Of a DNA stretch of 64,000 nucleotides, positions 15,301 through 59,054 are shown in pieces. Made by a program: the position numbers and the translations under genes. The notes beneath the pieces were generated by a model. That model did not search any database, had not been told where the DNA came from, and saw nothing but the letters and a program-made list of their open reading frames with translations. The DNA is from an uncultured Parcubacteria group bacterium. Its GTDB lineage: Bacteria > Patescibacteriota > Patescibacteriia > UBA9934 > CAMTUG01. The stretch lies in the NCBI GenBank assembly GCA_947084965.1, contig CAMTUG010000001.1, positions 74,166-138,165 of the forward strand. The letters run 5' to 3'. How positions within the stretch are numbered: position 1 is the first letter of the stretch; each line of letters starts with the position of its first letter.

Positions 15301-15443
15301 ATGGGGAGAGCTGTTATGATGGGGATGGGGAAATTATGACTAATGATAGTACTGATGAGTGTAATTTAGACTACCCGAATGCAGATATGACAGCATGGGA
15401 TCCCTGGGTCTATTACGAAGGACTGATCATCGTTGAGCCATAG
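6342..15443 (+). CDS. Giant secreted Cys-rich acidic surface protein (3033 aa), function unknown
   Basis: Uninterrupted 9.1 kb ORF; signal peptide; >150 Cys, D/T/S/G-rich; no recognisable catalytic motif. Confidence 0.85.
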   Translation: MDEQKPKRNGYLLRRAGATVCLLFVLFAAVLPSAVSAQVVQVVTAPGVPIETTEDLKKELIEKPFQVAFLTIIWNFMTFISNRIAYDAAVAIATAGNGEEPLIELRDPMRYLEDLGKDVVGAGIDALNQSLEAVNIHFDLCAPKAPLVKLSLQLGIRSAYDRPEPDCDFQELTENWEAFTASTIFSASPDEAALFQFSATMNPRTTDLSSAITLLDQIYTDEALTKSSSFAEYLANNGYKNVVNSITGNVETPADLVENAWSRSVEIAIPTKEDRIAGFNFFLESKDLWKQLGVSALSTFANTLLSTFTQRIYSGMFDIDIPESDVLDVGTITFRGGVDAAESHFRSMFTAKIISLDNYSVISEFLTCPGTTTRQLNNCVMDSGFGNAVAGAEVGDPFTVQEAIDEGYIHGDWPLISQDDSRDLDQNCYSYGYCYGNLVRMRKARIIPVGWEMAASIQAAGDSDTLQDVIDQFDDCNADNERDPSHPYCHLIDPNWVLKYPSTQCRASVPGQLVDNDGIKRGTECVDAPSCIQEDAGGECVGGYGYCVREQNSFDFRGTSCPEQYATCLAVSNEDDELSGNYLFNTTDLEECDADSAGCRWYQTTKESTDDVFDWPTIDDLPTLDAAAGTYASRFYYNNDVEECDSDDAGCTRVIEKTDDVTLNLIRNPSFEDDEDADGVPDYWTFTGAGTYDLSGTTSAFASDSVAPGASGSSAIIYQTDLPLQQATFYTLSFYAEQADATSSETLTVYAVINSEDGSAEVDLSGTSYGGDCTIADLDSSGGEETILMSVTPASNTSERFSCTFTSPTFTDEDLGVRIQFLDFIGEEIYVDAVQLEADEDLSDFVVGYGTTLEQLNPTYYKLPPSYLGCTGDSDVDPAECADYAPVCTAQDVGCSEYTPENGDPVVTGIAGALDECPAVCSGYDTYKQEPTRYEPDGDFPLYFIPDTAISCGAQYVGCDEFTNLNTEERESYTYLRACQTTTQTTDEATYYTWEGSDLEGFQLVSWSLMQSDTTDAPCTTWSTTSSAIECADLSTAGTDDACDEHDDIFENPDCREFYDADGDIFYRLWSETVTVTDSCTPYRKTQIVGDDATEQASNCSGAGGYWDGTVGECNFYGYADESDECPATANGCREYTGGNSRNSSVVYEDDVEDEDIDEYIVNATTTTAEVSNESVATDGHSIHVEMSADDGYVAVASATMADCSESDGCTADTADEDADGSTADCGESDGCDAEVGTLGVSCTISEGDATCGALTGELAEGKVYILKFWAKTTTSSLVITPVFIEQAGTGDEYQFDTVTLSPIWKEYTVGPLDTTDESGFDDSALLAFMADSGAEFYLDNITLRQTEENITVIKDSWETPATCDETEDGVSSDQYHLGCQEYRDQDGETVYLKSFTRLCDEDQVGCAAFYDTQSSDSVYGAVYNITCEAVTSAGIGGACEIDGEEVCDMAAGESSCQFDWIGGVPREDDGTLKDLDSTDYQLALNADAVVVPPDEVTYFVASDTYACDEGAMGCMEVGVPTYNQDQSQVASWETSYLLNVVDAYDDILCNVDTLFCEAWDTTQNGTYYFKYPQDKTCEYRTGVVIDGSEYSGWFRTDTDQFCYGSGTCSDDATVSCSLDADCASADAGTCEINDGSYVQGGTFSGVWRNGDTAFDGWVGTCDDEYDLCSEFIDTLDVGENGLYGTDGGSSSFFLNNDELDESNLPASKQCSGQVSQKQGCILFNDTLDSELNYNASATYTLSVHANEFYSGTMTYGLVDPISCPDSGVVETLSGTSYDLCAMRCTYRNDLLHPYEDYSTTTGEDFYTFTTSCIYDSDCPLIESDGSDLVDGTCETGTFTGAGSSGSITVPTLEDDTNRIQKVNLDRDCAEWLSCSSQTTVWDESASAYKTVCDGIGMCNEYSSLGETSFCTNWNIDASPTLLTSNHYASRDIGWYGYEYAGYAVPYSLPAHLLSQKNVNPSKWCTYSTADGSVYDGRDYGYETPFIDCSADDGMCDDATGSTSAVCSSAPTDYRLVYDAGTCDEENGESCEVGFCASSGASCGTDSDCDSGDTCETGYCGYAASSGTCEVDADCTDSVYNTCNNNLCTTLTAEACSVSSECTNTSLGTATCIDSATSMDGMCFENECLVDVSDRDEDGNLDDFDYDLAEALDCRGWPESSAPFPNEVVTIWQNADGATDATPDGDENAITTLSTFEDVNLCAGGEECLCNYDVVEYGTGKTWYYDQASDAIPTYKCVGGLYDGGECDATAGGAMVIDDVIQTELCSEGSGVCTRLSSQQTMIGLEGYCLERDTSLTLNGQTGEAPCLTWLPVDRPAGATDIYGKATEAGYPLEDTFYCGDIDLYMDVPTSSIGCAQHETSSGGQDCNYVSSTEDPYWGDLLRGDGNAVCPDGMFAVIGRCIDSDGKTDGDFDDPYASSSGNSAVDTCMADAADDSNDHPYFCVPEGSVHTEGIDEGDLCDIPDDDLLNDFGAALNEVKESDWDYDDVWDINGTWGQMETVASSLSLGNDVYKIEAQPDEFDTLYEYYSDCVLEGVDYLSTKNNPYLIPTPDNLLSGSYYTCSNSSGPSREAAVCADGNYDNRDLVSEVENSYHDLTFGTVVYPGCSSIVQVASTTENRAWTDRVLFDGRAYAIDQFSSASLAFTMDTVENPFGVSVSPTYLNEEIDPNPARPLSCLGDIDGDGYDDIYLPNVSGSCGSGSLISDGLNQGRAYDDFDGETGGYIMVSDSENLRPDQVLFGLISPSTAWENAISEIFAFANTWSRFDQGLDDDDDFESIGSYSTLAESSGLWDITDSGDSNIEDGNPTAPVVRAVGETCVDQYCREGVEDTFSVNGQDDSDLTGDGGQFFADVKFFVEANANQMPIRRVIVDWQDQRDTMSGSLTDDNYYKNRRGLNDSNNHWCEQETNWGETAEACEPNYFNTTNVYTCSMALVETLPVCSTNDSGNLEESPCRGGDSGYSEDVCIFQPRVHVRDNWGWCTGVCGTDGESCYDGDGEIMTNDSTDECNLDYPNADMTAWDPWVYYEGLIIVEP

Positions 15444-17804: not shown

Positions 17805-17961
17805 ATATCGGTACTGTAACGTTTATCCACATTTTTTGAAATCATTGTCAGAAACTTTTGACATCACTTTTTGTTTGATTTAGCGCGGGTGAGATGGATT
17901 TTTTTGAATAGGGTTGTCAGAAAGTATTAACAAAAAGTTTGCTAATTTTAGCCAAAAAGTG

Positions 17962-17990
17962 TTGACAAAAAGCGATTTTTGCGATACAGT
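17962..17990 (+). promoter_or_regulatory. sigma70-like promoter TTGACA-17-TACAGT upstream of M23 lipoprotein, about 220 nt GC-rich leader
   Basis: Consensus -35, 17-nt spacer, -10 TACAGT. Confidence 0.5.
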
Positions 17991-18216: not shown

Positions 18217-20286
18217 ATGCGCCTCACCAGGCTTCTTTACACCCACATCATCGTCTTCATCCTCGGGATGATCACGATGCTCACGAGCCTCACCGGCTGC
18301 TCGGATCCGTTCGAACAGTGGCAGGAAGAGATGCGTCTGGCCGAGATCGGCGGCCACGAAGGCGACATCATCGATCTGCCGTTCGAGGCGGGCTACGAGG
18401 CGCTCTGCACCCAGGGGGCGCATGGGGAGTACAGCCACGCGAGCGAGTCGACCGAGTACGACATCGACCTCGACACCCCGAACGACAGCGTCGACCTCGT
18501 CTACGCCCCGGTCGGCGGGGTGGCCTACGTCCACATGGACTCGGCGTCCAAGAACTTCGGCTACCACGTCAACATCGACCGCGACGACGGGACCTACGTC
18601 ATCCTCGGACACCTCTCGGACATCTACGTCGAGGACGGGGTCGAGGTGGCGGCCGGGCAGATCGTCGGGACGGAAGGGTGCACGGGCTACTGCTCGGGCG
18701 ACCACGTCCACTTCGGTCTGCACTCCGGCGATGCGGCGAGCCCCGGTGAGCGGGCGACCTCGATCAAGGTCAGCTACCTGGTCGACGACGTGACCGCCGG
18801 GGAGGAGGGCGAGGTCTACACCAGCGAGGAGATGATCTGCGACCTCGAAGGCGGCGGGCACCGCTACCGCTCGCTCCTCACGACCCCGACCTGGCACCCC
18901 AACGGGTCCTTGGTCAAGACCCCGTGGGACGAGGAGGTCTTCCTGATCGAGAACGGCACCAAGCGGTGGATCACCGATCAGGACGTCTTCTGGTCGCTCG
19001 GCTACTCCTTCGAGGACGTGGCGCTCATCTCCGGCACGGAGCTGAACTGCTACGACCAGGGGGATGACGTGGCCACGGCGGACGAGGTGCCGACCGCGTA
19101 CACGAGCGCGGACGGGACGGTGACGCTCCACGAGGGCGAGCTGGTCAAGGAGAGCTCGGAGAGCGACGTCTACGTCATCTCGGAAGGGGTGGCGATGCCG
19201 ATCGAATCCTGGGACGTGCTCCTGAAGCTCGGCTGGGGTGAGCGGCCGATCACCACGATCGACGACGGGACGATCGAGGAGATCGTCGGCGCGGTCGGGA
19301 GCTGTGCGGCCGACATCTGGTGCCTCGACCACGACCTCCTCGAGGCGTGCGAAACGACCAACCCGGCCAACGTCGGCGGGAGCGAGGACACCGCGAGCGA
19401 GGAGGAGAACGAGACCGAGGCTGTGGATCCGTCGTCGATGCTCGAGGGGGAGATCGAGGACGGGGAGTTCGGGCTCGTGTTCCTGCCGCCCGATGGCTAC
19501 GAAGCGGAGCACATCACCCTCACCGGGACCGCGATCGACGCTGAGGGGAACACCCTCTACGCCGAGCGCGAGCTGGCGAGCGAGAACGGGGACACGGCGC
19601 TCTGGTGGACGACCATGGCGTTCGAGGACGGTGGAGTCTTCGACTTCTACGTCACCTACACCGACGGGATGGGCGACCGCTACTCCTGCGAGATCGAGAA
19701 CGACGGGAGCTACCGCATGAACGGCACGCTCTACATGGTCTACGGCGCCGAGGTGATCGACATCGAGACCGTGCTCGAGAGTGCCAACGGCGGGCGGCAC
19801 TGCTACGTGCGGCCGCGGATTCCGCCGGGGTACACGATCGAGATCGATACCGGCGACTCGAACAGCAGCGGGGACACCGGAGAGCCGACGGTCGACACCG
19901 GAACCGCCACCGACGCGGAGGTCGAGATCTGCTACGCCCCCGGGGTGACGATGTCTGGCGGGGAGCTCTACCTCGACGGAGGATTCTTCACCCACTGGGA
20001 TACGAGTCCGGCTGACACCGCCGCTTCCGGCGACACGACGATGTGCGAAACGGTCACCGCTGTCTCAGGAGAGACGATCAAGGTGAACGGTTGGTTCATC
20101 GAGCGCGGCGGATCCGGGACGGTCGAGTGGGCGGCGTACAACAACGTGTGCGCGTCGATCGACTGGCAGGGGAGTGTGACCGTGGACTCGGCGAGCGTCA
20201 GCGTGACGACCGCGCCGTGGAGCGCCGCGTCCTGGGCCAGCGACCCCTGCATGACCGGCGGGGACGGCTACTTCACCGTCCCGTAG
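18217..20286 (+). CDS. Lipoprotein with M23 (LytM-type) metallopeptidase domain, 689 aa, GC-rich
   Basis: Lipobox LTGC; HxxxD (HVNIDRDD) and HxH (GDHVHFGLH) motifs; AGGAGG RBS; about 68 % GC. Confidence 0.75.
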   Translation: MRLTRLLYTHIIVFILGMITMLTSLTGCSDPFEQWQEEMRLAEIGGHEGDIIDLPFEAGYEALCTQGAHGEYSHASESTEYDIDLDTPNDSVDLVYAPVGGVAYVHMDSASKNFGYHVNIDRDDGTYVILGHLSDIYVEDGVEVAAGQIVGTEGCTGYCSGDHVHFGLHSGDAASPGERATSIKVSYLVDDVTAGEEGEVYTSEEMICDLEGGGHRYRSLLTTPTWHPNGSLVKTPWDEEVFLIENGTKRWITDQDVFWSLGYSFEDVALISGTELNCYDQGDDVATADEVPTAYTSADGTVTLHEGELVKESSESDVYVISEGVAMPIESWDVLLKLGWGERPITTIDDGTIEEIVGAVGSCAADIWCLDHDLLEACETTNPANVGGSEDTASEEENETEAVDPSSMLEGEIEDGEFGLVFLPPDGYEAEHITLTGTAIDAEGNTLYAERELASENGDTALWWTTMAFEDGGVFDFYVTYTDGMGDRYSCEIENDGSYRMNGTLYMVYGAEVIDIETVLESANGGRHCYVRPRIPPGYTIEIDTGDSNSSGDTGEPTVDTGTATDAEVEICYAPGVTMSGGELYLDGGFFTHWDTSPADTAASGDTTMCETVTAVSGETIKVNGWFIERGGSGTVEWAAYNNVCASIDWQGSVTVDSASVSVTTAPWSAASWASDPCMTGGDGYFTVP

Positions 20287-20423: not shown

Positions 20424-20927
20424 ATGGAAACGAATATTCCCATCGAACGTATCTATCAAAATATTTATCTCATTCGGGGAAAAAAGGTTATGTTAGATTC
20501 TGATCTGGCTATCCTTTATGGTGTAGAGACAAGATCCCTAAACCAAGCCGTGCGTCGCAATATCGAACGTTTTCCGGAAGACTTTATGTTTGAACTAAGC
20601 TCAGTTGAGCTAAAATCTTTGAGATCACAAATTGTGATCTCAAACGGTCGAGGTGGAGCCAGATATGGCCACATGGTTTTTTCTGAATACGGAATCGCCA
20701 TGTTATCGAGTGTTTTGCGAAGTGAAAAGGCGGTGCAGGTCAATATTCAGATCATTCGGGCATTTATTGCTCTGCGTGACTTTGTGCTTAGTAATGATGA
20801 TTTGCAGATGAAAATCGAAGCACTTGAATTGCGTTATGACGGCGAGTTGCGTTCAGTTTTCGATGCTCTGAATCGTCTTCTGACTGAAGAGGAGAAGCCG
20901 GAACCAGAAATCGGCTTCAAAACTTGA
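20424..20927 (+). CDS. ORF6N/KilA-N domain protein (phage antirepressor-like DNA-binding)
   Basis: KVMLDSDLAILYGVETRSLNQAVRRNIERFPEDFMFEL signature. Confidence 0.7.
   Translation: METNIPIERIYQNIYLIRGKKVMLDSDLAILYGVETRSLNQAVRRNIERFPEDFMFELSSVELKSLRSQIVISNGRGGARYGHMVFSEYGIAMLSSVLRSEKAVQVNIQIIRAFIALRDFVLSNDDLQMKIEALELRYDGELRSVFDALNRLLTEEEKPEPEIGFKT
20619..20643. repeat. Perfect 25-nt palindrome ttgagatcacaaattgtgatctcaa inside ORF6N gene
   Basis: Identical to copy at 20925-20949. Confidence 0.7.
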
Positions 20928-20949
20928 GATCACAAATTGTGATCTCAAA
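20925..20949. repeat. Perfect 25-nt palindrome overlapping ORF6N stop codon
   Basis: ttgagatcacaaattgtgatctcaa. Confidence 0.7.
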
Positions 20950-26021: not shown

Positions 26022-26137
26022 GAAATTCGAAATACGAAGTACGAAACAATCGGAAAATCAGAAAGGGAAAGTTTCAAAATTTCCTCTTTCCGATTCGAAT
26101 TTGTTTCGGATTTCGATATTCGAATTTCGTATTTATA
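26022..26137. repeat. Palindromic intergenic repeat, copy d
   Basis: gaaattcgaaatacgaagtacgaaacaat ... attcgaatttgtttcggatttcgatattcgaatttcgtattt. Confidence 0.75.
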
Positions 26138-26855: not shown

Positions 26856-26950
26856 AAATTCGAAATACAAAATACGAAGTACGAAACAATCGGAACATCT
26901 GAAGGAGAAAATCAGAAAATTTCGAATTTCGATATTCGGATTTCGTATTT
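26856..26950. repeat. Palindromic intergenic repeat, copy e
   Basis: Near-identical to copy d at both ends. Confidence 0.75.
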
Positions 26951-33245: not shown

Positions 33246-35243
33246 ATGCTGCCCCTTAGTGCAATCCCTGGACTCGGTCCTAAAGCGATCGCTGATTTAA
33301 AGCGGCTGGGGGTTTTGTCTGTCGCCGATCTGCTGGCTCATTATCCTTTGCGTTACCAAGATCTGTCACACAAGGTGACGACGGCAGAGTTGCATGCAGG
33401 GGAAACAGTGACGATCGATGGGGTAATAAAGTCGATCGCATCGCGCATCACGCCGCATCGCCGGATGACCTTAATCGAAGCCGTTTTGAGTGATGATCAT
33501 GGATCGGTCAAAGTGATCTGGTTTAATCAACGCTATTTGATGAAAGCTCTGCATCCCGGAAGCCTAGTGAGGTTATCTGGGCAGGTGACGCTCGGTCCGC
33601 GCGGGTTGCAGTTCACCAATCCGACCTTTGAACTGCAGCGGGCGGGGGAGTCGGTGCATACCGGACGGATCGTGCCGATCTATCCGCTGACCGGCGGAAT
33701 CACCCAGAAACGGATTCGTTCGGCTGTGGCGTGGGCGATGAAGGTCGTGCCGATCGCAGACTGGTTGCCAGAGGAGGTCAAAGAACGCGAGGATTTGATC
33801 GACTTGGTGGAGGCGGTCCAGCAGATTCATCTGCCAGATTCTTTTAAGGCGGTCGAAGAGGCCAGGAAGCGGTTGCAATTTGATGAACTGTTTTTGTACG
33901 AGTTGACGCATCTGAAGTCACGGGCTGAGTTGAAGAAGCTCACCGCGCCGTCGATCCCTTCGTCGATCGATGCGGTTAAAACATTCGTGGCGTCCCTTCC
34001 GTTTGAGTTAACCGGAGCACAGCGCAAAGCGGCTTGGCAGATTATGCAGGATATGGAGCGGGGTGAGCCGATGAATCGACTGCTCGAAGGGGACGTTGGA
34101 TCAGGAAAGACGGTGGTGGCCGCGATCGCGGCGTTCAATGCCGCTCAGAGTGGATTTCAAACCGCCGTATTGGCACCAACGGAGATTCTTGCGGAACAGC
34201 ACGATCGATCATTTGAGAAGCTCGGTCTGAACGTTTCGTTAATTACAAGTTCGCACGATGGAGACCCGTTGGCCGATGTCGTTGTTGGTACACACGCCTT
34301 ACTCGAGACGAAGATTCAGTTTCGTAAGCTTGGATTAGTTGTCGTTGATGAACAGCATCGTTTCGGGGTGCGCCAGCGGCAGGCGCTACAAGAGAAAGAG
34401 ATCGAGAACGTTGGTGTGCCGCATTTATTGTCGATGACCGCCACGCCGATTCCGCGTACACTGGCCCTAACGCTCTACGGAGATCTTGATCTATCCGTGC
34501 TCGATGAACTTCCGAAGGGTCGCAAACCGATTGCGACACGACTGGTGAAGTACGGCAAAGAGGCGGAGATGTACAAGCATGTGCGGAGTGAGCTTGATCT
34601 GGGGCGTCAGGCGTTTGTTGTCTGCCCCCTGATCGATTCTTCTGAAGAAGTTGCAGCAAAGTCCGTCACCGATCTGTTCGCGCTGCTCACAGCAGGGGAG
34701 CTGAAGGCGTACCGTTGTGTGATGCTGCATGGGCGGATGAAGAGCGAGGAGAAAGATGCGATCATGCAGGCGTTCAAGCGCGGAGAGATAGACGTGTTGG
34801 TGGCGACCACGGTGATCGAGGTTGGCGTTGATGTGCCGAATGCGACGGTGATGTGCATCGAGGGGGCAGAGCGGTTTGGACTAGCTCAAATGCACCAGCT
34901 GCGTGGGCGTGTTGGGCGTTCGGACAAGCCGTCGTTTTGTTATCTAAATCCGAGTGGGTTTGTTCCTGAAAAAACATACGAGCGCCTTAAGGCGCTCGTC
35001 GATTGTCAGAATGGGTTTGAGCTTGCCGAACGTGATTTGGCATTGCGCGGGTCAGGGGAGCTCTATGGCACGCAGCAGTCTGGCTACCCAGAGTTTAAGA
35101 TCGCAAATATTTTTGATGCGCCGCTTATTTCGAAGGCGCGGAACGCGGCGGCGGATCTGTTAAAAGAGGATGGGGAATTGGTGGAGCATCCGGCCGTGCG
35201 TGCTCGATTGGAGGAATATGTGCATCGAGTGCACTTTGAGTAG
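33246..35243 (+). CDS. recG: ATP-dependent DNA helicase RecG
   Basis: Wedge domain, DVGSGKTVVA Walker A, DEQHRFG; possible GTG start at 33228. Confidence 0.9.
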   Translation: MLPLSAIPGLGPKAIADLKRLGVLSVADLLAHYPLRYQDLSHKVTTAELHAGETVTIDGVIKSIASRITPHRRMTLIEAVLSDDHGSVKVIWFNQRYLMKALHPGSLVRLSGQVTLGPRGLQFTNPTFELQRAGESVHTGRIVPIYPLTGGITQKRIRSAVAWAMKVVPIADWLPEEVKEREDLIDLVEAVQQIHLPDSFKAVEEARKRLQFDELFLYELTHLKSRAELKKLTAPSIPSSIDAVKTFVASLPFELTGAQRKAAWQIMQDMERGEPMNRLLEGDVGSGKTVVAAIAAFNAAQSGFQTAVLAPTEILAEQHDRSFEKLGLNVSLITSSHDGDPLADVVVGTHALLETKIQFRKLGLVVVDEQHRFGVRQRQALQEKEIENVGVPHLLSMTATPIPRTLALTLYGDLDLSVLDELPKGRKPIATRLVKYGKEAEMYKHVRSELDLGRQAFVVCPLIDSSEEVAAKSVTDLFALLTAGELKAYRCVMLHGRMKSEEKDAIMQAFKRGEIDVLVATTVIEVGVDVPNATVMCIEGAERFGLAQMHQLRGRVGRSDKPSFCYLNPSGFVPEKTYERLKALVDCQNGFELAERDLALRGSGELYGTQQSGYPEFKIANIFDAPLISKARNAAADLLKEDGELVEHPAVRARLEEYVHRVHFE

Positions 35244-35285
35244 TCGTGGGGTCTCGAAAAGTACTTTTTTCGAAGGTATATCGGT

Positions 35286-35362
35286 CAGGTTAACATCGGG
35301 TTAATCCTAGGTAACGATTAGGTAACATCCAGGTTAAGGTTCAAAAAATAGTTTTTTGAGAT
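35286..35362. repeat. Iteron-like repeat (five helically phased AGGTWAC units plus A/T hairpin), copy A
   Basis: About 80 % identical to 57934-58005. Confidence 0.6.
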
Positions 35363-35397
35363 GCCCAGAGCCGCGAGGATAATTCGTGAATTTGCCC

Positions 35398-43357: not shown

Positions 43358-43470
43358 AGAAATCCGAAATTCGAATATCGAAATACGAAATAAGCGGAAA
43401 CCGGAAAGTTCGAATTTCAAATTTTTCTCTTTCCGATTCGAATTTGTTTCGTATTTCGAATTTCGTATTT
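43358..43470. repeat. Palindromic intergenic repeat, copy f (between htpX stop and clpC start)
   Basis: gaaatacgaaat...ttgtttcgtatttcgaatttcgtattt. Confidence 0.75.
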
Positions 43471-43477
43471 TTTATCT

Positions 43478-44392
43478 TCATACCCCCATGCTACGCAGGC
43501 GTTTAATGCGTTCTTCAACAGGCGGATGTGTGGAGAACCAGGAGGCGAGTTTGTTTCCCGGCCCGAACGGGTTTGAGATGTAGAGGTGGGCGGTGGCGTG
43601 GTTGGCCTTTTTCATCGGAGCGCCGTACGCCCGGATCTTTTCGAGAGCGCTGGCTAATCCTTCAGGGTAGCGGGTCAGAAGCGCACCGGATGCGTCTGCC
43701 AAATATTCGCGTTGGCGTGATACGGCGAGTTTAATCAGTTCGGCAAAAAACGGAGAGAGGATCGAGAGGACGAGGCCGATCACAAAGAGGGCGATCGTTG
43801 CTTGATTGTGTTCGCGATTGCGACCAAACATGAACGAGCGTAGCATCCAGTCTGCAAGCAAGGTCACGATACCGACGAGGACGATGACGATCGTCATCAC
43901 GAGGATGTCGTAGTTTTTGATGTGCGACATCTCGTGAGCCAGCACCCCTTCAAGTTCTTTTTTCTCCATGATACGCAGAAGCCCGGTCGTCACGGCTACG
44001 CTCGCATGTTCAGGGTTGCGGCCGGTAGCGAAGGCGTTTGGGGCATCGTCTTGAACGATGTAGACCTTGGGCATTGGGGTGCCGTTGGTGATCGCCAGAT
44101 TCTCGATAATTCTCCAGAGTTCCGGGGCCTGATCCTTTTCAATCTGTTTTGCTCCGGAAGTGGCGAGGGCTAATTTGTCGCCGCCGAAGTAACTGATGAG
44201 CGACATCGTCGTCGCAAGGATCGTCGCAAGAACGATTCCGCTCGTGGCATCGCCATTTGCTTCCCCGAAGACCCAACCGATCGTCAGAATCAGGACGGAG
44301 AAGAGGGTGACCAGCAAAACGGTTTTGCGTTTGTTGGAAGCAATCTGGTTATACACAGAAATACGAAATACGAATATCGAAATTCGAAACAA
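43478..44392 (-). CDS. htpX: Zinc metalloprotease HtpX (M48); annotated N-terminus (MFRISIFVFRISV) is repeat-encoded and start is uncertain
   Basis: HEMSHIKNYD HExxH motif, 4 TM. Confidence 0.8.
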   Translation of the reverse strand: MFRISIFVFRISVYNQIASNKRKTVLLVTLFSVLILTIGWVFGEANGDATSGIVLATILATTMSLISYFGGDKLALATSGAKQIEKDQAPELWRIIENLAITNGTPMPKVYIVQDDAPNAFATGRNPEHASVAVTTGLLRIMEKKELEGVLAHEMSHIKNYDILVMTIVIVLVGIVTLLADWMLRSFMFGRNREHNQATIALFVIGLVLSILSPFFAELIKLAVSRQREYLADASGALLTRYPEGLASALEKIRAYGAPMKKANHATAHLYISNPFGPGNKLASWFSTHPPVEERIKRLRSMGV

Positions 44393-44478
44393 TTGGAAAC
44401 GTGAAAGGGAAACGTGTTTGCGAATTTTCTCTTTTCATTTCGAATGTGTTTCGTATTTCGTTTTTCGAATTTAGAATT
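44357..44478. repeat. Palindromic intergenic repeat, copy g (between lemA stop and htpX start)
   Basis: gaaatacgaaatacgaatatcgaaattcgaaacaat ... gtgtttcgtatttcgtttttcgaattt. Confidence 0.75.
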
Positions 44479-49400: not shown

Positions 49401-51797
49401 ATGGCCAATATTCTCGCTTCTTACGACTGGATCAAAGAGCATCTTAAAACAGACGCCTCCGTGGCTGAGTTTGCCAAAAAGATGACTGACGCGGGGAACA
49501 GTGTCGAACACATTCATGATGTTGCTGAAGCCTACAACGGGATCGTTGTTGGTCGTATTTTGGTCGTTGATGCCCATCCGAATGCGGACAAGCTTCGCGT
49601 GGTCACGGTAGACGTTGGTAAGAAGGTGCAGATCGTTTGTGGTGGGTTAAATCTCGAAGTTGATCAGTTGGTCTGCGTTGCTCTGCCTGGAGCAAAAGTG
49701 CGTTGGCATGGGGAAGGTGAGTTGATTGAGTTGAAAGAGGCCGAGCTCCGTGGTGTGCAATCGTTTGGGATGATCTGTGCGCCTGACGAAGTTGGATTTG
49801 AAAAGTTGCAGGCCGGGGAAAAGATGATTTGGGATCTGACCAACGTTACGGATGCGAAACCCGGGACGCCACTTGTCAAAGCGCTCGGGCTCGAAGATAC
49901 TTTGTTTGATATTGAAGTGACGACCAATCGACCGGACGCCATGTCGATTGTTGGGCAAGCAAGAGAGGCAAGTGCTTGTGGGTTAGGAAAATTCGAAATG
50001 CGAAAATCGAAATTCGAAACAAGTGGAAAGTCAGAAGGAAAAAATGGGAAAATGGATCTCAAGGTGTCGGTCAAAGATAAAGATTTGTGCCCACGCTACC
50101 AAGCGGTGGTGATCGAAGGGGTCAAGGTTGCGCCATCACCGTGGTGGATGCAGAAGCGTTTATTGCTCTCTGGTCATCGTCCGATTAACAACGTGGTCGA
50201 TGTGACTAATTACGTTTTGCACGAGCTCGGTCAGCCGCTGCATGCTTTTGACGCCGACACGCTTGAAGGGCAAGAGATCATCGTGCGCAAAGCCAAAAAG
50301 GGAGAGAAGATCCTGGCGCTCGATGGGAAAGAATACGAACTCGATGCCTCGATGCTGGTGATTGCTGATGCAAAGAAACCGGTTGCCGTTGCTGGGGTGA
50401 TGGGGGGAGAGCTTACAGGAACAAAAGAAGGAACAACACGCCTCGTGATTGAATCTGCGGTGTTCGATGCTGTATCTGTCCGTCGCACGGCTCGCACCCT
50501 CAACTTGTATTCTGACTCTTCCAGCTTGTTTGAAAAGGGGCTTTCGCCGGAAGCGACAACCGGAGCGATTGAACGAGCGATTGAACTTATCTGTGAATTG
50601 ACCGGTGGTCACGTTGCCTCGGTCATCTACGATGCGCGTGCGGAAAAGTACAAACCGGAAGTGTATCCGTATGACGCCAAGCGCATCAGTGATGTGATCG
50701 GCCTTGATGTCCCAGAGAAAAAGCAAAAGGAGATTTTGGAAGCACTCGGGTTTGTTATCGATGGAAAAAAAGCGACCGTTCCGTATTGGCGCGATCATGA
50801 CATCGAAGATGCGATCGACTTGGCTGAAGAGGTCGCCCGGGTGGTGGGTTATGCCAATGTGCCGTCGGTCATTCCAACAGGGGAGATTCCGGTTACGTTG
50901 CCCGATCCAAAGATTGTCTGGGAGCGGAAGCTGAAAAATATTCTGAAAGGCGCTGGCGTCAGCGAGGTGTACAGCAACGCCTTTGTTTCCGAAGCGATAC
51001 TCGGCAAGTACAAGATTCCGCTCGATGCGGCCAGTAAATTGGAAAATCCGCTGACCGATGAATGGGTGTACATGCGCCCGACGCTTGTACCGAGTATGCT
51101 CACAGTAATTGAAGAAAATCAGCGACGCTTTGAAGCGGCCGCATTATTCGAGCTCAACCACGTGCACCATCCGCGCAAAGGGGATATTCCTTCCGAAGAT
51201 TGGCGCCTGTTAATTGCCGGTTACGGTCCAGACGGCGGGGCGCAAGCGTTCCGTTATGTCAAAGGAATCCTCGAGCGCGTGTTGCGAGAAGCGGGCGTGG
51301 CTGCGGTTAGCTTTGAATCGGGCGGAGCAGACGATCACTTCCACCCAGGCCGCAGCGCCAAAGTCATCGCTGGAAAAGATATGGTCGGGACGATCGGCGA
51401 ACTCGCGCCGCACTACGCGCAGGCGTTCGGTATCGACCGTCGCGTTGTTCTGGCTGACCTGAATCTCGATCATCTCTTGCCACACTTAGGTGCTGGCAAG
51501 CGCTATCAGCCAACCCCAGAGTTCCAAGACCTGATCCGCGACTTGTCATTCGTCCTCCCGGAACGCAAAACGCACGCCGAAGTGCAGGCGGCGCTGGTTG
51601 GAGTTGATCCATTGATCAGTAGTGTTTCCCTCGTCGACGTCTATCAAGGGAAAGGGATCGAGGCGGGACAGAAGTCAATGACGTATCGCTTATCTCTGCG
51701 TGCCTCTGATCGCACATTGTCTTCCGACGAAGCTGATGCGGTCATGAACTCTGTTGGAAAGATGCTCACTTCCGATTTTGGTGCTATACTACGGTAG
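49401..51797 (+). CDS. pheT: Phenylalanine--tRNA ligase beta subunit (contains in-frame repeat insertion 49988-50030)
   Basis: tRNA-binding, B3/B4, B5, FDX-ACB domains; start MANILASYDW. Confidence 0.9.
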   Translation: MANILASYDWIKEHLKTDASVAEFAKKMTDAGNSVEHIHDVAEAYNGIVVGRILVVDAHPNADKLRVVTVDVGKKVQIVCGGLNLEVDQLVCVALPGAKVRWHGEGELIELKEAELRGVQSFGMICAPDEVGFEKLQAGEKMIWDLTNVTDAKPGTPLVKALGLEDTLFDIEVTTNRPDAMSIVGQAREASACGLGKFEMRKSKFETSGKSEGKNGKMDLKVSVKDKDLCPRYQAVVIEGVKVAPSPWWMQKRLLLSGHRPINNVVDVTNYVLHELGQPLHAFDADTLEGQEIIVRKAKKGEKILALDGKEYELDASMLVIADAKKPVAVAGVMGGELTGTKEGTTRLVIESAVFDAVSVRRTARTLNLYSDSSSLFEKGLSPEATTGAIERAIELICELTGGHVASVIYDARAEKYKPEVYPYDAKRISDVIGLDVPEKKQKEILEALGFVIDGKKATVPYWRDHDIEDAIDLAEEVARVVGYANVPSVIPTGEIPVTLPDPKIVWERKLKNILKGAGVSEVYSNAFVSEAILGKYKIPLDAASKLENPLTDEWVYMRPTLVPSMLTVIEENQRRFEAAALFELNHVHHPRKGDIPSEDWRLLIAGYGPDGGAQAFRYVKGILERVLREAGVAAVSFESGGADDHFHPGRSAKVIAGKDMVGTIGELAPHYAQAFGIDRRVVLADLNLDHLLPHLGAGKRYQPTPEFQDLIRDLSFVLPERKTHAEVQAALVGVDPLISSVSLVDVYQGKGIEAGQKSMTYRLSLRASDRTLSSDEADAVMNSVGKMLTSDFGAILR
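49988..50030. repeat. Half copy of CGAAAT repeat inserted in-frame in pheT (encodes KFEMRKSKFETSGK)
   Basis: ttcgaaatgcgaaaatcgaaattcgaaacaagtggaaag. Confidence 0.6.
51782..51790 (+). promoter_or_regulatory. Extended -10 promoter TGCTATACT inside pheT 3' end, 8 nt before next ATG
   Basis: Motif match. Confidence 0.45.
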
Positions 51798-52074: not shown

Positions 52075-52202
52075 GAAGACCGTTTATCGAGGAGGAGAAG
52101 ATCTTGTGCGGGACCCCCTGCGCTGGGGTCTTCTTCTTGGGTTTTGGCCCCTCCCCAAACCGCTGGCGAAAGCAGGCGGCGCGTGTTAATCTGAGGGGCG
52201 AT

Positions 52203-55200
52203 ATGGCCAGCAAATTCGTCCATCTTCACGTGCATTCGCACTATTCGCTTCTTGAGGCGTTGCCTAAGATTAAAGCGCTTTTAAAGCAGGCCAAAGCGAT
52301 GGAGATGGATGCGATGGCACTCACCGATAATGGGGTGATGTACGGCTCGATCGAGTTTTATCAAAAGTTTTCAGAAGAGGGGATCAAACCGATCATCGGG
52401 ATCGACGCTTACTTGGCGCCATTTACGCGGTTTGATAAGCGGCACAAGATCGATACCAAGTCGCATCGACTCGTCTTGCTCGCCGAGAATATGGTCGGCT
52501 ACAAAAACATGATGAAGATCGCCACGCTCGGATTCATGGAAGGATTTTATTACAAGCCGCGGATCGACAAGGATGTTTTACGATCATTCTGCCTAGGGAA
52601 GTCCCATGGACTGATCGTCTTATCTGGTGGATTTTACGGCGAGATTCCGACCTTGGTGCGTCACGGCGAAACGGACAAGGCAAAAGAAGTGATCAAGGAG
52701 TTCGTTGAAGTCTTTGGAGCCGGTAATTTTTTTCTTGAGCTCGTTGATCGCCCGGAATTGCCCGAAGACAAAGCCGTCAACGCCACACTGATCACGATCG
52801 GACAGGAACTCGGTGTGCCACTTGTCGTCACCAAAGACGCGTATTATTTGAAGCCGGACGATGCAGAGGCTTGGAAAGTTTTAGCCTGTGTGAAGAGCGG
52901 AAAGTCGCTCGAAGAGTTTGAGCGCCAGAACCCGACGGAGTTTGACGCATCTTTGTGTTCACCCTCAGAGATTGAAGAACGTTGGGCAGATGTACCGGAA
53001 GCGATTGAGAATACGCGTCGGATCGCCGATCGTTGTAACGTCACGCTTGAACTCGGAACGTGGAACTTTCCGATTATTGAAATTCCTGAAGGGTACACCC
53101 ATGATGCGTGGCTAAAAGAACGCGCTCATAAAGAGATTGAAGCGAAGGTGCCAGCGGTGACGCAGATGATGCGCGATCGTATTGATTACGAACTGTCCGT
53201 CATCAGCCAAAAAGGATTCGCTCCGTACTTTCTCGTCGTGTCAGATTACATCGAGTGGGCGCGCCGCAACGGAATCGTCACCACCACACGCGGATCGGCC
53301 GCCGGTTCCTTGGTTGGTTTCTCGATCGGCATTTCTACTGTTAATCCGATTACCTACAAACTTCCGTTCGAGCGTTTCTTGAACCCGGAACGTCCGAGCG
53401 CGCCAGACGTCGACGGTGACTTCGCGGATAATCGTCGTGAAGAGGTGTATAAATACGTGCAAGAAAAGTATGGGGAAGATAAGGTAGCGCAGATCTGTAC
53501 GTTCGGGACGATGATGGCTCGCGGTTCGGTGCGCGACGTCGGTCGCGCGCTCGGCTTCCCGCACCACGAGTGCGATCGGATCGCCAAGATGGTCCCGCAA
53601 GGGTCGCAAGGGTTTCCGATGTCGTTGAAGCGCGCCCTCGAAGAGAATCCAGATTTGGGCAAGTTGTATAAGGAAAACGCCCAAGTTCGGCGGCTGATCG
53701 ATCTCGCCATGCAGATTGAAGGGTGTGGCCGTCACGTCTCGATTCACGCCGCCGGGGTCGTTATTTCGCCGCTTCCGTTGACCGAATTCACTCCGCTGCA
53801 AGTTGATACAAAGGAAGGGAAAGTGCTCACCCAATACGAAATGAAAACGGTCGAAGCGGCCGGGGTGTTGAAGATGGACTTTTTGGGGATTCGCAACTTG
53901 TCGATTCTTGGAGATGCCGTCGCACTGGTGAAAACGTTGAAGGGCGAAACGATCGTGCTCGAAGAGATTCCGATTGATGATAAAAAGACGTTTGAACTGC
54001 TCGCTGCCGGAAAGACGATGGGGGTGTTCCAATTAGGCGGTGATGGGATGACCAAGTATTTGATGGAGCTGAAGCCGGAACGCGTCGAAGACATCATGGC
54101 CATGGTCGCCTTGTACCGCCCAGGGCCGATCGAATCGATCCCGGAATATATCAAGCGCAAACACGACCGTTCGCTGGTGAGTTATCTTGACCCGCGCATG
54201 GAGAAGATTCTCGATCAGTCGTTCGGAGTTATTACGTATCAAGACGACGTCATGTTGCTGGCGATTGAACTGGCCGGCTATAGCTGGCTCGAGGCGGACA
54301 AGTTGCGCAAGGCGATGGGGAAGAAAATTCCAGAAGAGATGGCGGCGCAGAAAGAAAAGTTGCTCGACGGGTTTGTGAAGAAAGGGAAGTTGAGTAAATC
54401 TCTTGCTCAACAGCTTTGGAAGTTGATTGAGCCGTTTGCCGCCTATGGGTTTAACAAAGCCCACGCGGCGAGCTACGGCATGGTCGCTTATCAGACGGCC
54501 TACATGAAGGCCAACTATCCGGCGATGTACATGACCGCTCTCATGACCGCAGAATCGGCTGATCTAGAAAAGATCGCCGAAGCGTTTGTGGAATGCGAAC
54601 GCATGGGAATCAAAGTTTTGCCGCCGGACATCAACGAATCGCGTAAGAACTTTACCTACATTGACGATCAGAATATTCGTTTTGGATTGTTGGCGATTAA
54701 AAACTTGGGACAGGATGTGATCGAATCGATGATCGCAGAGCGCGAGGCGAACGGCCCGTTCGTTGACTTGGCTGACTTTGTTAGTCGAATCCACCATCGT
54801 GCGTTTAACAAAAAGTCTCTTGAAGCGCTGACCAAAGCGGGGGCACTCGATCGATTCAGCGAACGTGGACAGATCCTGGCCAACATGGATCAGATTTTAC
54901 TCTACAACAAAGCGGTGCAGCAGGAGAAGTTGCAAAATCAAGTTTCGTTGTTCGCCAGCGCCCCAAATATGGAGATCGCCACCTTGCGGTTGCGTCCCGC
55001 GCCAGAAGTTTCCGGATTTGTGAAACTTGCCTGGGAGCGCGAACTCCTGGGGCTGTATGTAAGCGCCCATCCGACGGAGGCACTTATTTCTCGGGCCCCG
55101 GATGCGATCACGCGTATGGCCAAAGCGATGACGTCGCCGGACGGGACGTTTGTTTATCTGTGCGTCGGGGTAGGCGAACCTAAGGTGATCATGACCAAAA

Positions 55201-55757
55201 AACAGGAGCCGATGGCCTTTGTGCCGATCAATGATCTTTCTGGGGCAGGGGAGTTGATCGTCTTCCCGCGCACCTTTGCCACAAGTAAGGAGAAGGTTGT
55301 TGAAGGGGCGGTGTTGCTTGTGAGTGCCAAAGTCTCGGTCCGTGACGGTGCCACCGCACTTATTTGCAATAGTGTGATCCCGGTCACGGAGGCGAATACG
55401 GATGGTCTGATCGAAATGATGCGCAATGGGATGTGGATTCTGGATGGGGAAGTGGGGGGAGGAACGACAGAGGAAAGAGGGGAGAGGAAAGAGGAGGGGG
55501 GCGGGAGACGAGAGGAAAGGACGGAAAAGCGGACGGGGGTGGAGATTCTGTTGCGCGGCAAACCGAGTCCGGAGATGATCGCGGATCTGCGCGAAGCGCT
55601 CCAGGCATTCCCTGGCACGAGCCGAGTTTCATTTATTGTGGAGTCGGCTGGGACGGAGCGGCGCATCGAAACGGAGTACGCGATCAATCCAGTATCTGAG
55701 GCGTTGGGACGTGTCCGTGCGATTGTCGGTGCCGAAAATGTACGCACGGCGGGCTAA
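52203..55757 (+). CDS. dnaE: DNA polymerase III alpha subunit (contains in-frame purine-rich insertion 55468-55515)
   Basis: PHP domain HVHSHYSLL, palm/fingers motifs; start MASKFVHLHVHS. Confidence 0.9.
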   Translation: MASKFVHLHVHSHYSLLEALPKIKALLKQAKAMEMDAMALTDNGVMYGSIEFYQKFSEEGIKPIIGIDAYLAPFTRFDKRHKIDTKSHRLVLLAENMVGYKNMMKIATLGFMEGFYYKPRIDKDVLRSFCLGKSHGLIVLSGGFYGEIPTLVRHGETDKAKEVIKEFVEVFGAGNFFLELVDRPELPEDKAVNATLITIGQELGVPLVVTKDAYYLKPDDAEAWKVLACVKSGKSLEEFERQNPTEFDASLCSPSEIEERWADVPEAIENTRRIADRCNVTLELGTWNFPIIEIPEGYTHDAWLKERAHKEIEAKVPAVTQMMRDRIDYELSVISQKGFAPYFLVVSDYIEWARRNGIVTTTRGSAAGSLVGFSIGISTVNPITYKLPFERFLNPERPSAPDVDGDFADNRREEVYKYVQEKYGEDKVAQICTFGTMMARGSVRDVGRALGFPHHECDRIAKMVPQGSQGFPMSLKRALEENPDLGKLYKENAQVRRLIDLAMQIEGCGRHVSIHAAGVVISPLPLTEFTPLQVDTKEGKVLTQYEMKTVEAAGVLKMDFLGIRNLSILGDAVALVKTLKGETIVLEEIPIDDKKTFELLAAGKTMGVFQLGGDGMTKYLMELKPERVEDIMAMVALYRPGPIESIPEYIKRKHDRSLVSYLDPRMEKILDQSFGVITYQDDVMLLAIELAGYSWLEADKLRKAMGKKIPEEMAAQKEKLLDGFVKKGKLSKSLAQQLWKLIEPFAAYGFNKAHAASYGMVAYQTAYMKANYPAMYMTALMTAESADLEKIAEAFVECERMGIKVLPPDINESRKNFTYIDDQNIRFGLLAIKNLGQDVIESMIAEREANGPFVDLADFVSRIHHRAFNKKSLEALTKAGALDRFSERGQILANMDQILLYNKAVQQEKLQNQVSLFASAPNMEIATLRLRPAPEVSGFVKLAWERELLGLYVSAHPTEALISRAPDAITRMAKAMTSPDGTFVYLCVGVGEPKVIMTKKQEPMAFVPINDLSGAGELIVFPRTFATSKEKVVEGAVLLVSAKVSVRDGATALICNSVIPVTEANTDGLIEMMRNGMWILDGEVGGGTTEERGERKEEGGGRREERTEKRTGVEILLRGKPSPEMIADLREALQAFPGTSRVSFIVESAGTERRIETEYAINPVSEALGRVRAIVGAENVRTAG

Positions 55758-57827: not shown

Positions 57828-57933
57828 AGTGATCGAATTATACTCGGGCGGGGGGTTCATTTAAAGACGGTGGGCGGCGGCTCGCCAGCAAGTTGTGTGG
57901 TGAAAAATCGCATTTTTCGATCATATATCATTC

Positions 57934-58005
57934 TGGTTATTAGGAGGTTAATCGTAGGTAACAGTTAGGTTACATCTAGGTTAAGGTTGAAAAAGTGACT
58001 TTTTT
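57934..58005. repeat. Iteron-like repeat, copy B
   Basis: tggttattaggaggttaatcgtaggtaacagttaggttacatctaggttaaggttgaaaaagtgactttttt. Confidence 0.6.
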
Positions 58006-58117
58006 AGCTAACTACAGCCACGGACCATTGACAAAATGGCTTTTTTGTGCTATCCTGCTCGGTCCGGCATCTGGTCCATACAGATGATTTCCCCCGGGTC
58101 CGGCCCCAAGGATTGTC

Positions 58118-58612
58118 ATGCGTTACCTCTTCTTCCACCTCTCGATGTTTTTCTTCGTGGCCTGCAGCGAGGCCCCCGAAGTTCGGACCATCCAGGGCAC
58201 CCTGGCGCTCGAGACCGCCAAGGCGGAACTCGACGCCGAGAAGGCCAAGTCCGCGGACCTCGCCAAGAAGCTCGCCGACGAGCAGGCCAAGGTGCGGGAC
58301 TGTGCCTCGCGCGCGCAGGCGGCCAACTCCGAGCTCTACGACCTGCGCATCGTCGCCGAGACCTACGTGGCGACGCAGCGGCAGCGTGGTGACACGCTCA
58401 TCGTCTGCGAGCTCCTGGAGGGCGAGGGCGAGGGTCGCGCCCCCGTCGGCGAGGCGGTGCTCCTCGTCACCGGCGACGGGGACGCGATCATCAACGGCGA
58501 GCAGGCGGTGGAGTTCGGCGGCAAGTCCTTCGTGACCGACATCCAGAAGGACTGCACCGGCTACCACGTCGTGTACGCCGCCGACGGGACCCCCTCGATC
58601 ACCTGGAACTGA
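58118..58612 (+). CDS. Lipoprotein with coiled-coil segment, GC-rich gene
   Basis: Lipobox FVAC; about 65 % GC. Confidence 0.6.
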   Translation: MRYLFFHLSMFFFVACSEAPEVRTIQGTLALETAKAELDAEKAKSADLAKKLADEQAKVRDCASRAQAANSELYDLRIVAETYVATQRQRGDTLIVCELLEGEGEGRAPVGEAVLLVTGDGDAIINGEQAVEFGGKSFVTDIQKDCTGYHVVYAADGTPSITWN

Positions 58613-59054
58613 CCGCCCCCCGTCGTGGCTGAGAGCTGTACTAGCTCGTACGAGGCCGCGCATCTCTTGGGGAGGCGGTCTTGTATTTTTAGAGACATTT
58701 TTAAAAAAACAGAAAGGGCCCCTGAGATCATCTTGTGTGATGATTCTCAAGGGCCACCTTTCCGTGACACCGAGAGCTAAGGTTCATCGATAAACCCCGC
58801 TTGGATATTTCGATTAAATCATAAATCGCACAAAATGTCAATCGTTTTGTTGTGGATAGTTGACACTATTGGCAGGCGAAGTATCATGTGTCTACGGCGT
58901 TGATTGGGCTACCAACCCAGGAGTCGACGGAGCACGAACGCGTCGTGCAACAAAGAGGTTTGGTGGACGAGAATCGCCAAACAACTCGGGTGGAACCGTC
59001 TGGCGCGAGCTGGATCCCGGGATCTAATACATTTAGGTCGCGGTTTTTGTTTTT

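Follow-up and report, generated by a model that had tools for sequence, protein, structure and literature searches.

One question raised by a 64,000-nucleotide stretch of DNA from an uncultured Parcubacteria group bacterium (GenBank assembly GCA_947084965.1, contig CAMTUG010000001.1, positions 74,166 to 138,165; the whole stretch is referred to below as the window) is why a short A/T-rich element, built around five regularly spaced GGTWA cores, is found in it twice, once between recG and radA and once between mutM and a lipoprotein gene. To our knowledge, transcriptional regulation in Patescibacteria, or the candidate phyla radiation (CPR), is almost uncharted, and searches of the literature for CPR intergenic repeat elements or Pho-type regulators yielded nothing useful. 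The answer that is tentatively favoured here, at a little short of an even chance, is that each copy is a cooperative binding array, made of five head-to-tail boxes, for one winged-helix regulator of the OmpR/PhoB family (PhoB/SphR/PhoP/WalR type), as judged from the sequence.

The initial annotation of this DNA had described five phased units at each locus, spaced about 10-11 bp apart, and an A/T-only mini hairpin after the array. Five units are indeed found at both loci, at an exact 11-bp period, with GGTWA cores starting at 35288, 35299, 35310, 35321 and 35332 in copy 1, and at 57935, 57946, 57957, 57968 and 57979 in copy 2; an extra GGTT stands 6 nt past the fifth core (GGTTA) in both copies, and the mini hairpin is real (35342-35358 and 57989-58006). 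Overlooked were a second palindrome, ahead of the array, and the conserved hexamer TATATC. The layout shared by the copies is thus an A/T palindrome, 5 nt, TATATC, 5 nt, five 11-bp units, the extra GGTT, and a second A/T palindrome, positioned as follows.

35256 to 35271, plus strand: left A/T palindrome of copy 1, GAAAAGTACTTTTTTC, 12 nt past the recG stop codon.
35277 to 35282, plus strand: hexamer TATATC of copy 1, conserved, 5 nt ahead of the first core.
35287 to 35341, minus strand: five-unit array of copy 1, CTTAACCT gga TGTTACCT aat CGTTACCT agg ATTAACCC gat GTTAACCT.
35342 to 35358, plus strand: right A/T palindrome of copy 1, CAAAAAATAGTTTTTTG.
57902 to 57918, plus strand: left A/T palindrome of copy 2, GAAAAATCGCATTTTTC.
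57924 to 57929, plus strand: hexamer TATATC of copy 2, conserved.
57934 to 57988, minus strand: five-unit array of copy 2, CTTAACCT aga TGTAACCT aac TGTTACCT acg ATTAACCT cct AATAACCA.
57989 to 58006, plus strand: right A/T palindrome of copy 2, GAAAAAGTGACTTTTTTA.

The arrays stand out sharply from the rest of the window. With two mismatches at most allowed, the three-unit pattern has eight matches, six of which are exact and lie within the two loci (0.11 expected from shuffled sequence), and the two-unit pattern KGTWAH-N5-KGTWAH has ten, nine of them in the two loci, where 0.29 would be expected. That the loci are homologous, previously put at about 80% identity over about 70 nt, also holds, and the homology is longer than was noted: blastn aligns the copies at 78.5% identity over 93 nt (E 5e-12), nhmmer extends the element to 35253-35369 and 57896-58015, a unit of about 120 bp, and the best local alignment pairs 35242-35375 with 57891-58022. 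Outside the alignment limits the similarity of the flanks falls to the level of shuffled sequence, making the boundaries of the unit sharp, and the element has 34-36% G+C versus 53.5% for the window. Both copies are on the plus strand, in direct orientation, 22.6 kb apart. The host genome sequence that was read amounts to about 68 kb, namely the window and 3.6 kb to its right (Logan contigs, run ERR3478686), and no third copy was found in the 64-kb window or in the 3.6 kb past its right end. Tests of flank homology for the direction of copying between the two spacers were not significant, and the orientation of the element ends is ambiguous, because the ends are A/T palindromes.

A unit of about 120 bp with sharp boundaries, palindromic ends and unrelated flanks is also what might be left by a dispersed selfish or neutral repeat, akin to repetitive extragenic palindromic (REP) sequences or miniature inverted-repeat transposable elements (MITEs), which holds an old 11-bp minisatellite and has colonised two permissive spacers without any sequence-specific function. 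Just two copies in about 68 kb, however, is few for such a repeat, and neither a clear target-site duplication nor a transposase is found with them; for these reasons, and for the pattern of substitution described below, this explanation is considered unlikely. Two further origins were rejected. The copies are not attL and attR of an island, being just ~80% identical with housekeeping genes between them, and they are not transposon ends, being direct rather than inverted.

Comparison of the two copies with one another bears on whether the array has a function. Core positions are identical between copies at 24 of 25, whereas the remaining (linker) positions are identical at 20 of 30 (Fisher P = 0.0076), and the sole core change, T against A in the middle of GTWAC, leaves the DNA motif self-complementary; selection thus appears to act on the boxes in both copies. 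Across all ten units the five core columns are invariant or W-only and variation is found mostly in the linker columns, a pattern that a decaying minisatellite would not give. Furthermore, units inside one array are far less alike than corresponding units across the arrays, and the five-unit array is therefore older than the duplication, with the cores kept in both copies. As four units contain the self-complementary GTWAC, orientation is not fixed by the motif alone. Repeats of a coding sequence were also considered and rejected, 11 not being a multiple of 3.

The question of what might bind such boxes is best approached through published sites of response regulators. In cyanobacteria, the PhoB orthologue SphR recognises Pho boxes of 8 bp, three or more in direct tandem and separated by linkers of 3 bp, with the consensus CTTAACCT (PMC1906773). 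A weight matrix was built from the 61 distinct boxes in the table of that paper, a set whose consensus is cyanobacterial, and all window positions were scored on both strands. For tandems of five boxes the two arrays rank first and second in the window, at 27.2 and 26.7 bits, the next unrelated site reaching 9.3 bits against a background of -38 +/- 11. The scores are unevenly spread over the boxes, being 10.2, 0.9, 1.5, 6.4 and 7.7 bits in copy 1, and 10.2, 2.7, 0.9, 8.5 and 4.9 bits in copy 2. A second family member, WalR/VicR of Firmicutes, has the consensus TGTWAH-N5-TGTWAH (PMC4168254), which has the same 11-bp spacing. For Streptomyces PhoP (PMC2275107), operators are made of 11-nt repeat units, up to six in complex operators, a 10-nt unit drastically lowers binding, and poorly conserved units are filled via cooperative binding.

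An association of comparable arrays with response regulators was also seen beyond the window. Scans of genome collections used a pattern of four GGTWA units, and those of metagenomes the pattern GGTWA-N6-GGTWA-N6-GGTTAAGGTT. The genome scan gave at least 121 arrays, comprising 21 degenerate ones (adjacent-unit identity <=0.65) and 100 near-perfect tandems, and among the matches listed a response-regulator gene lies within 350 bp of 7 of the 21 degenerate arrays versus 1 of the 100 near-perfect ones. These seven degenerate arrays consist of four orthologous cyanobacterial loci, one from Omnitrophota that is next to a kinase-regulator pair, and two from Anaerolineae; in Pfam, the cyanobacterial and Omnitrophota proteins have Response_reg and Trans_reg_C, and the Anaerolineae proteins near arrays have two receiver domains without a DNA-binding domain. 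The counts support a link between degenerate GGTWA arrays and response regulators in general, those arrays being analogues of the element and not its homologues: nhmmer with a profile of the element found no homologue among 240 loci taken from the matches listed in the genome and metagenome scans. The matches listed are for the most part perfect 11-mers in tandem, arrays of DnaA boxes, or GGTTAG repeats of telomere-like type. For instance, two loci of the genome scan, from metagenome-assembled genomes (MAGs), one of Binatia (L039, 655-758) and one of Halanaerobiales (L048, 2949-2997), have five to ten perfect TTATCCACAGG units, which are DnaA-box 9-mers in tandem at an 11-bp period. One DnaA box is found in the window, TTATCCACA at 17824-17832.

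The genes around the two copies are as initially annotated, convergent recG and radA in the first case and divergent mutM and a GC-rich lipoprotein gene in the second. Copy 1 lies in a 154-nt spacer between recG (Pfam families) and a RadA/Sms-like gene. For copy 2 the neighbours are mutM and a lipoprotein gene, which encodes 164 aa and has 68% G+C and the lipobox MRYLFFHLSMFFFVAC. The start of mutM is placed at 57827, on the Pfam N-terminal domain and the gene call of the Logan contig, the longest open reading frame (ORF) beginning 11 codons too early. The RecG and MutM homologues are named Patescibacteria group bacterium or Candidatus Uhrbacteria, and the nearest are 58-73% identical in protein. 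Two promoter-like sites flank copy 2.

57837 to 57865, minus strand: mutM promoter-like site TTTAAA-17-TATAAT, with the -10 ending about 10 nt ahead of the ATG at 57827.
58028 to 58056, plus strand: lipoprotein promoter TTGACA-17-TGcTATCCT, kept in three relatives and lying 43 bp away on the downstream side of the array.

Because its -10 ends about 10 nt ahead of the ATG, the mutM mRNA is probably leaderless or nearly so. The copy 2 array lies 107-161 nt upstream of that ATG, within the range of published Pho-box positions, and the minus strand of copy 2 has TATGAT (57925-57920), a 5/6 match to a -10 and a TAN3T, 8 nt past the last box and directed to mutM. In copy 1, TACCTT (35278-35273, minus strand) also fits TAN3T at 8 nt past the last box.

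These features suggest how a PhoB-like array might work. Because the boxes are exactly 11 bp apart, one per turn, monomers, if bound, would be aligned on one face of the helix, and a single OmpR/PhoB-family regulator would occupy the five boxes, as five monomers or as tandem dimers. Binding would nucleate at the best boxes (CTTAACCT, ATTAACCT and GTTAACCT) and then extend cooperatively to the weaker boxes in the middle, as happens at Pho operators with several boxes. The array of copy 2, amid divergent promoters, would modulate mutM, the lipoprotein gene, or both: the Pho-box orientation and the TAN3T at 8 nt could give a regulator-dependent start toward mutM, and since the lipoprotein promoter is 43 bp away on the other side, either gene may respond. 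Copy 1, presumably with no protein-coding target, could be a decoy or titration site, a roadblock, or the promoter of a short antisense transcript, the equivalent geometry at TACCTT being directed antisense into the end of recG. Decoy or titration sites are a concept studied for PhoB (PMC8599769). In this scheme the unit of about 120 bp, including the two A/T palindromes, would have been copied en bloc from one spacer to another.

Exact phasing and conserved cores would suit other proteins as well. In one such explanation, the array would be occupied by a different DNA-binding protein, of the ribbon-helix-helix (RHH), ParR/StbA-like or nucleoid-associated kind, with the palindromes as bends and the whole as an architectural or insulating site. 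The A/T palindromes on both sides at conserved spacing fit this idea, a position between convergent genes or at divergent promoters would suit an insulator or roadblock, and no response regulator was found nearby. However, the box sequence fits a published response-regulator consensus well, and we know of no comparable consensus match for RHH centromeres. Furthermore, no regulator, rep, dnaA, par, stb or RHH gene was detected among the window ORFs scanned with Pfam, array neighbours included, blastn found no plasmid or phage match, and the arrangement of a type II centromere, with repeats flanking a parM-parR-type promoter, is not seen here, the neighbours being recG, radA, mutM and the lipoprotein gene. 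An array for such a protein is therefore rated a minor possibility, as doubtful as a dispersed repeat.

The same scans bear on a further proposal, in which the repeats serve an integrated or chromosomal replicon, either as iterons for its replication or as the centromere for its partition. Replication iterons are repeats of about 17-22 bp, and the rep gene or origin beside them is accompanied by DnaA boxes and an unwinding element rich in A/T. The direct repeats, with A/T-rich DNA on either side, recall this arrangement, but the units here are 11 bp, the association with replication or partition genes raised in the initial annotation was not found among the Pfam-scanned window ORFs, and cumulative GC skew climbs through both loci without a switch or inflection. 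The copies are also 22.6 kb apart in housekeeping genes whose order is kept in element-free relatives, and the lack of plasmid or phage similarity extends to a scan of viral contigs with the specific four-unit pattern, which gave 0 matches. With only two copies found and the array absent at seven related loci, an iteron or centromere is very improbable. Thus, of the earlier view that these are protein-binding arrays, the phased regulator array is retained, the cores being kept and the boxes fitting published sites, and the iteron label is dropped.

The related loci were seven in number, three for the recG-radA spacer (L123-L125) and four for the mutM spacer (L247, L249, L250 and L251), from genomes with 58-73% amino-acid identity. 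Gene order at both loci is kept in the related genomes, and the element is absent in 7/7 of the orthologous spacers examined, which cover both loci. Possible remnants of an array, a few unphased AGGT motifs in L123 and a single CATCCAAGGTTA in L125, were judged too weak. Three relatives keep the lipoprotein promoter (TTGACA-17-TGnTAT) and an upstream block, TTTTT(C/A)GCTAAC...AGCC; because the T-run and AGCTAAC are common to relatives without the element, the right palindrome of copy 2 is at least partly ancestral flank. In GCA_964588955.1, both equivalent spacers (recG-radA, and mutM-small gene) hold a different repeat, a GC-rich hairpin of the form AGGCGGGGC-N6-8-GCCCCGCCTATAC, and for this reason the two spacers appear to behave as variable slots for lineage-specific repeats. 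Absence from the relatives' orthologous spacers and the slot-like behaviour of these sites both speak for a dispersed repeat, as does another abundant family in the genome, the heptad hairpins described below. The GC-rich hairpin, sometimes doubled, was seen in relatives at L123 12300-12345, L247 9900-9980 and 16270-16315, L250 4040-4125 and L249 ~10150-10190, and in GCA_964588955.1 it also occurs upstream of dnaE.

The resemblance of the flanking palindromes to promoters raises the prospect that the element is transcribed. The A/T palindromes resemble the -35 plus spacer layout of two good local promoters (17962 and 58028), and in copy 1 the left palindrome with TATATC resembles the local promoter layout, with a -35-like TCGAAA and a T-run spacer. 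The right palindrome of copy 1 overlaps a sigma-70-like TTGAGA-16-GATAAT (35356-35383) that is directed antisense into the radA 3' end. A small RNA gene could be imagined in which the left module (TCGAAA/GTGAAA, 17-18 nt, TATATC) is the promoter of an unstructured RNA of about 75 nt that carries five AGGUWA motifs, acts as a protein sponge or Shine-Dalgarno mimic, and ends at the right A/U hairpin and U-run. The left module is like the local promoters of the form TTGACAAAA-N4-TTTTTG-..-TAT, a hairpin and T-run do follow the repeats, and the unit was copied en bloc with its promoter-like part. On the other side, TATATC is without the final T of a -10 element, and the stem of the supposed terminator is A-U only, its T-run being the 3' arm of the stem itself. 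When all four strands were folded, copy 1 did no better than shuffles on either strand (z = -0.56 for the plus strand) and only the plus strand of copy 2 beat shuffles, by pairing of its A/T palindromes; Rfam gave no match at the gathering threshold and noise alone at E up to 10 (E = 8 and 4.4). The T/A swap in the core leaves the symmetry of the DNA untouched, though an RNA motif would be altered by it, and an 11-nt period is natural for duplex DNA; we know of no RNA-binding protein with such a period. An RNA gene is accordingly judged improbable. Two RNA-level candidates were likewise rejected, CsrA, TRAP or HutP-type motifs as having the wrong motif or period, and anti-Shine-Dalgarno pairing, where 4 nt at most would pair.

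The two local promoters just mentioned have a layout of their own. At 17940-17990 and 58006-58056, a palindrome, GCTAAnnTTAGCC, is followed by 8-10 nt, by TTGACAAAA-N4-TTTTTG and then by the -10, which is TACAGT in the promoter at 17962 (TTGACAAAAAGCGATTTTTGCGATACAGT) and TATCCT, after an extended -10 TG, in that at 58028 (TTGACAAAATGGCTTTTTTGTGCTATCCT). The genes that follow are GC-rich compared with the 53.5% of the window, an M23 peptidase gene (18217-20286) having 66% and the lipoprotein gene (58118-58612) 68%, and the layout is kept upstream of a small gene by mutM in the relatives L247, L249 and L250. Together these promoters resemble a small regulon that has an operator of its own.

Several observations weigh against a response-regulator array. 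Two middle boxes in each copy score poorly with the Pho-box matrix (0.9-2.7 bits), because of G at position 2, whereas the first, fourth and fifth score well, and with respect to the WalR/VicR consensus position 1 is G and not T in every plus-strand unit (GGTWAH). In the Pho box of E. coli, the -10 element is about 10 bp past the box (PMC1906773); here no canonical -10 is found at 10 bp past the array, and the TAN3T at 8 nt is weak in copy 1. The orientation of the Pho boxes agrees with mutM, and so with copy 2 alone; copy 1, set between convergent genes, has nothing obvious to regulate, and neither copy adjoins a typical Pho gene (pst, phoA) or a cell-wall hydrolase gene of the WalR type. The absence of the element from the relatives' spacers means that evidence of conservation comes solely from the two paralogous copies. 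Furthermore, a search of 202 kb, made up of the window and the relatives' loci, found neither a receiver domain nor a DNA-binding domain of the OmpR type, and as no regulator is among the Pfam-scanned window ORFs, any cognate factor in this reduced genome is hypothetical. A chance resemblance to one of the many A/T-rich consensus sequences of response regulators is only moderately improbable.

If a regulator of the PhoB type does bind these arrays, the result would be notable, since cis-regulatory sites of Patescibacteria are almost unknown and one copy is without an obvious target. An array with a response-regulator signature predicts that at least one regulator of the OmpR/PhoB type has been retained in the reduced genome, and it supplies a motif with which to look for the regulon. 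With binding confirmed, the recG-radA copy would stand as a naturally occurring non-promoter site, either decoy or roadblock. A bolder version, which has to be called speculative and rather doubtful, is that promoter-like palindrome, five-box array and second palindrome form a portable cis-regulatory cassette that is copied among spacers, where it rewires regulation, titrates a scarce factor, for instance as a decoy between recG and radA, or drives short, regulator-dependent antisense RNAs near the DNA-repair genes recG, radA and mutM; if true, it would be a way of evolving regulons, or of buffering a factor, that is not known from reduced CPR genomes. Were the element merely a dispersed repeat, the finding would be an ordinary one.

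The window contains other elements that are worth recording. More abundant than the 11-bp element is a family of imperfect hairpins of 110-130 nt, with a minimum free energy of -24 to -46 kcal/mol, whose arms are made of 7-nt units (CGAAATN x4-5, then CGAAACA). They are found at the following positions.

2072 to 2179, 26028 to 26129, 26860 to 26945, 43358 to 43465 and 44357 to 44467, in the window: heptad hairpins.
3288 to 3315, 5153 to 5173 and 49994 to 50021, in the window: heptad half arrays.
10855 to 11006 and 18453 to 18480 of L247, in a relative with ~70% protein identity: members of the heptad family.

The heptad hairpins lie between co-directional genes, in a cluster of type IV secretion system-like PrgI/VirB4 genes and in a ClpB/M48/LemA group, and several of them (for example 26028-26129 and 26860-26945) begin at or just past a stop codon. 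No match to them was found in Rfam. The family may act between cistrons as terminator or stabiliser hairpins, or else present arrays of heptads to a binding protein.

Another repeat is a perfect palindrome of 25 bp, TTGAGATCACAAATTGTGATCTCAA, which stands at 20619-20644, within the 5' part of a gene (20424-20927) for a 167-aa, antirepressor-like protein with an ORF6N domain, and again at 20924-20949, at the stop of that gene; the two copies may serve as operators or mark the ends of a small module that was inserted. The thrS leader (58860-59054) has a promoter, TTGACA-17-TATCAT, at 58860 and a T-box-like stretch, GGGTGGAACCG, and matches no T-box or other Rfam family at E up to 1. From 6342 to 15443 the window is occupied by a single ORF of 3033 aa with only a faint match to CBM_4_9, whose product seems to belong with the giant surface-type proteins that have been reported from CPR genomes. 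The DnaE protein of the window (52104-55757, 1217 aa) is without an intein, and that of a relative (L249, 5297-10168, 1623 aa) has one (Intein_splicing, LAGLIDADG_3).

Several known systems resemble the element in part. REP, bacterial interspersed mosaic element (BIME) and MITE repeats share with it the short unit, the palindromic ends, the position in convergent or divergent spacers, the lineage-specific occurrence, and slots that hold other repeats in relatives. Unlike them, the element has an internal phased array with invariant cores, was seen in two copies, and has neither a clear target-site duplication nor a long stable hairpin. Five 11-bp repeats are bound by ParR at parC of plasmid R1 and by StbA at stbS of R388; these are direct repeats, of the same number and period as those described here, which a small DNA-binding protein coats cooperatively. 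The plasmid sites, however, come in pairs of sets, one on either side of the promoter of the par or stb operon to which they belong, whereas the context here is chromosomal and housekeeping, with no par or stb gene among the window ORFs scanned with Pfam.

The likeness to sites of the OmpR/PhoB family extends in part to the boxes themselves. The WalR/VicR boxes are hexamer direct repeats with an 11-bp period; all ten plus-strand units (10/10) have the form xGTWAH-N5, and one exact match to the dimer is found on the minus strand at 57958-57974. They differ in that there are five units here and two there, with no cell-wall hydrolase gene directly downstream and no WalRK genes seen. The operators of Streptomyces PhoP have another consensus, with units that are GTTCACC-like, and another promoter context. 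The class III operators are nonetheless similar in their strict 11-nt units and in having well-conserved units beside weak ones.

Among the closest systems are the Pho boxes of SphR. There are five boxes here, and G, nearly never seen at position 2 of published boxes, takes that position in the middle two (TGTWACCT, CGTTACCT); the host is a member of the Patescibacteria without an identified SphR or PhoB; the neighbours are recG and radA, or mutM and the lipoprotein gene, in place of pst, sphX, phoA or nucH, and one copy is without a downstream gene. Set beside these differences, the minus-strand arrays of both copies are made of five 8-bp boxes with 3-bp linkers at an 11-bp period, and both start with a perfect CTTAACCT and hold, in GTTAACCT, ATTAACCT and AATAACCA, variants that are themselves found in the published table.

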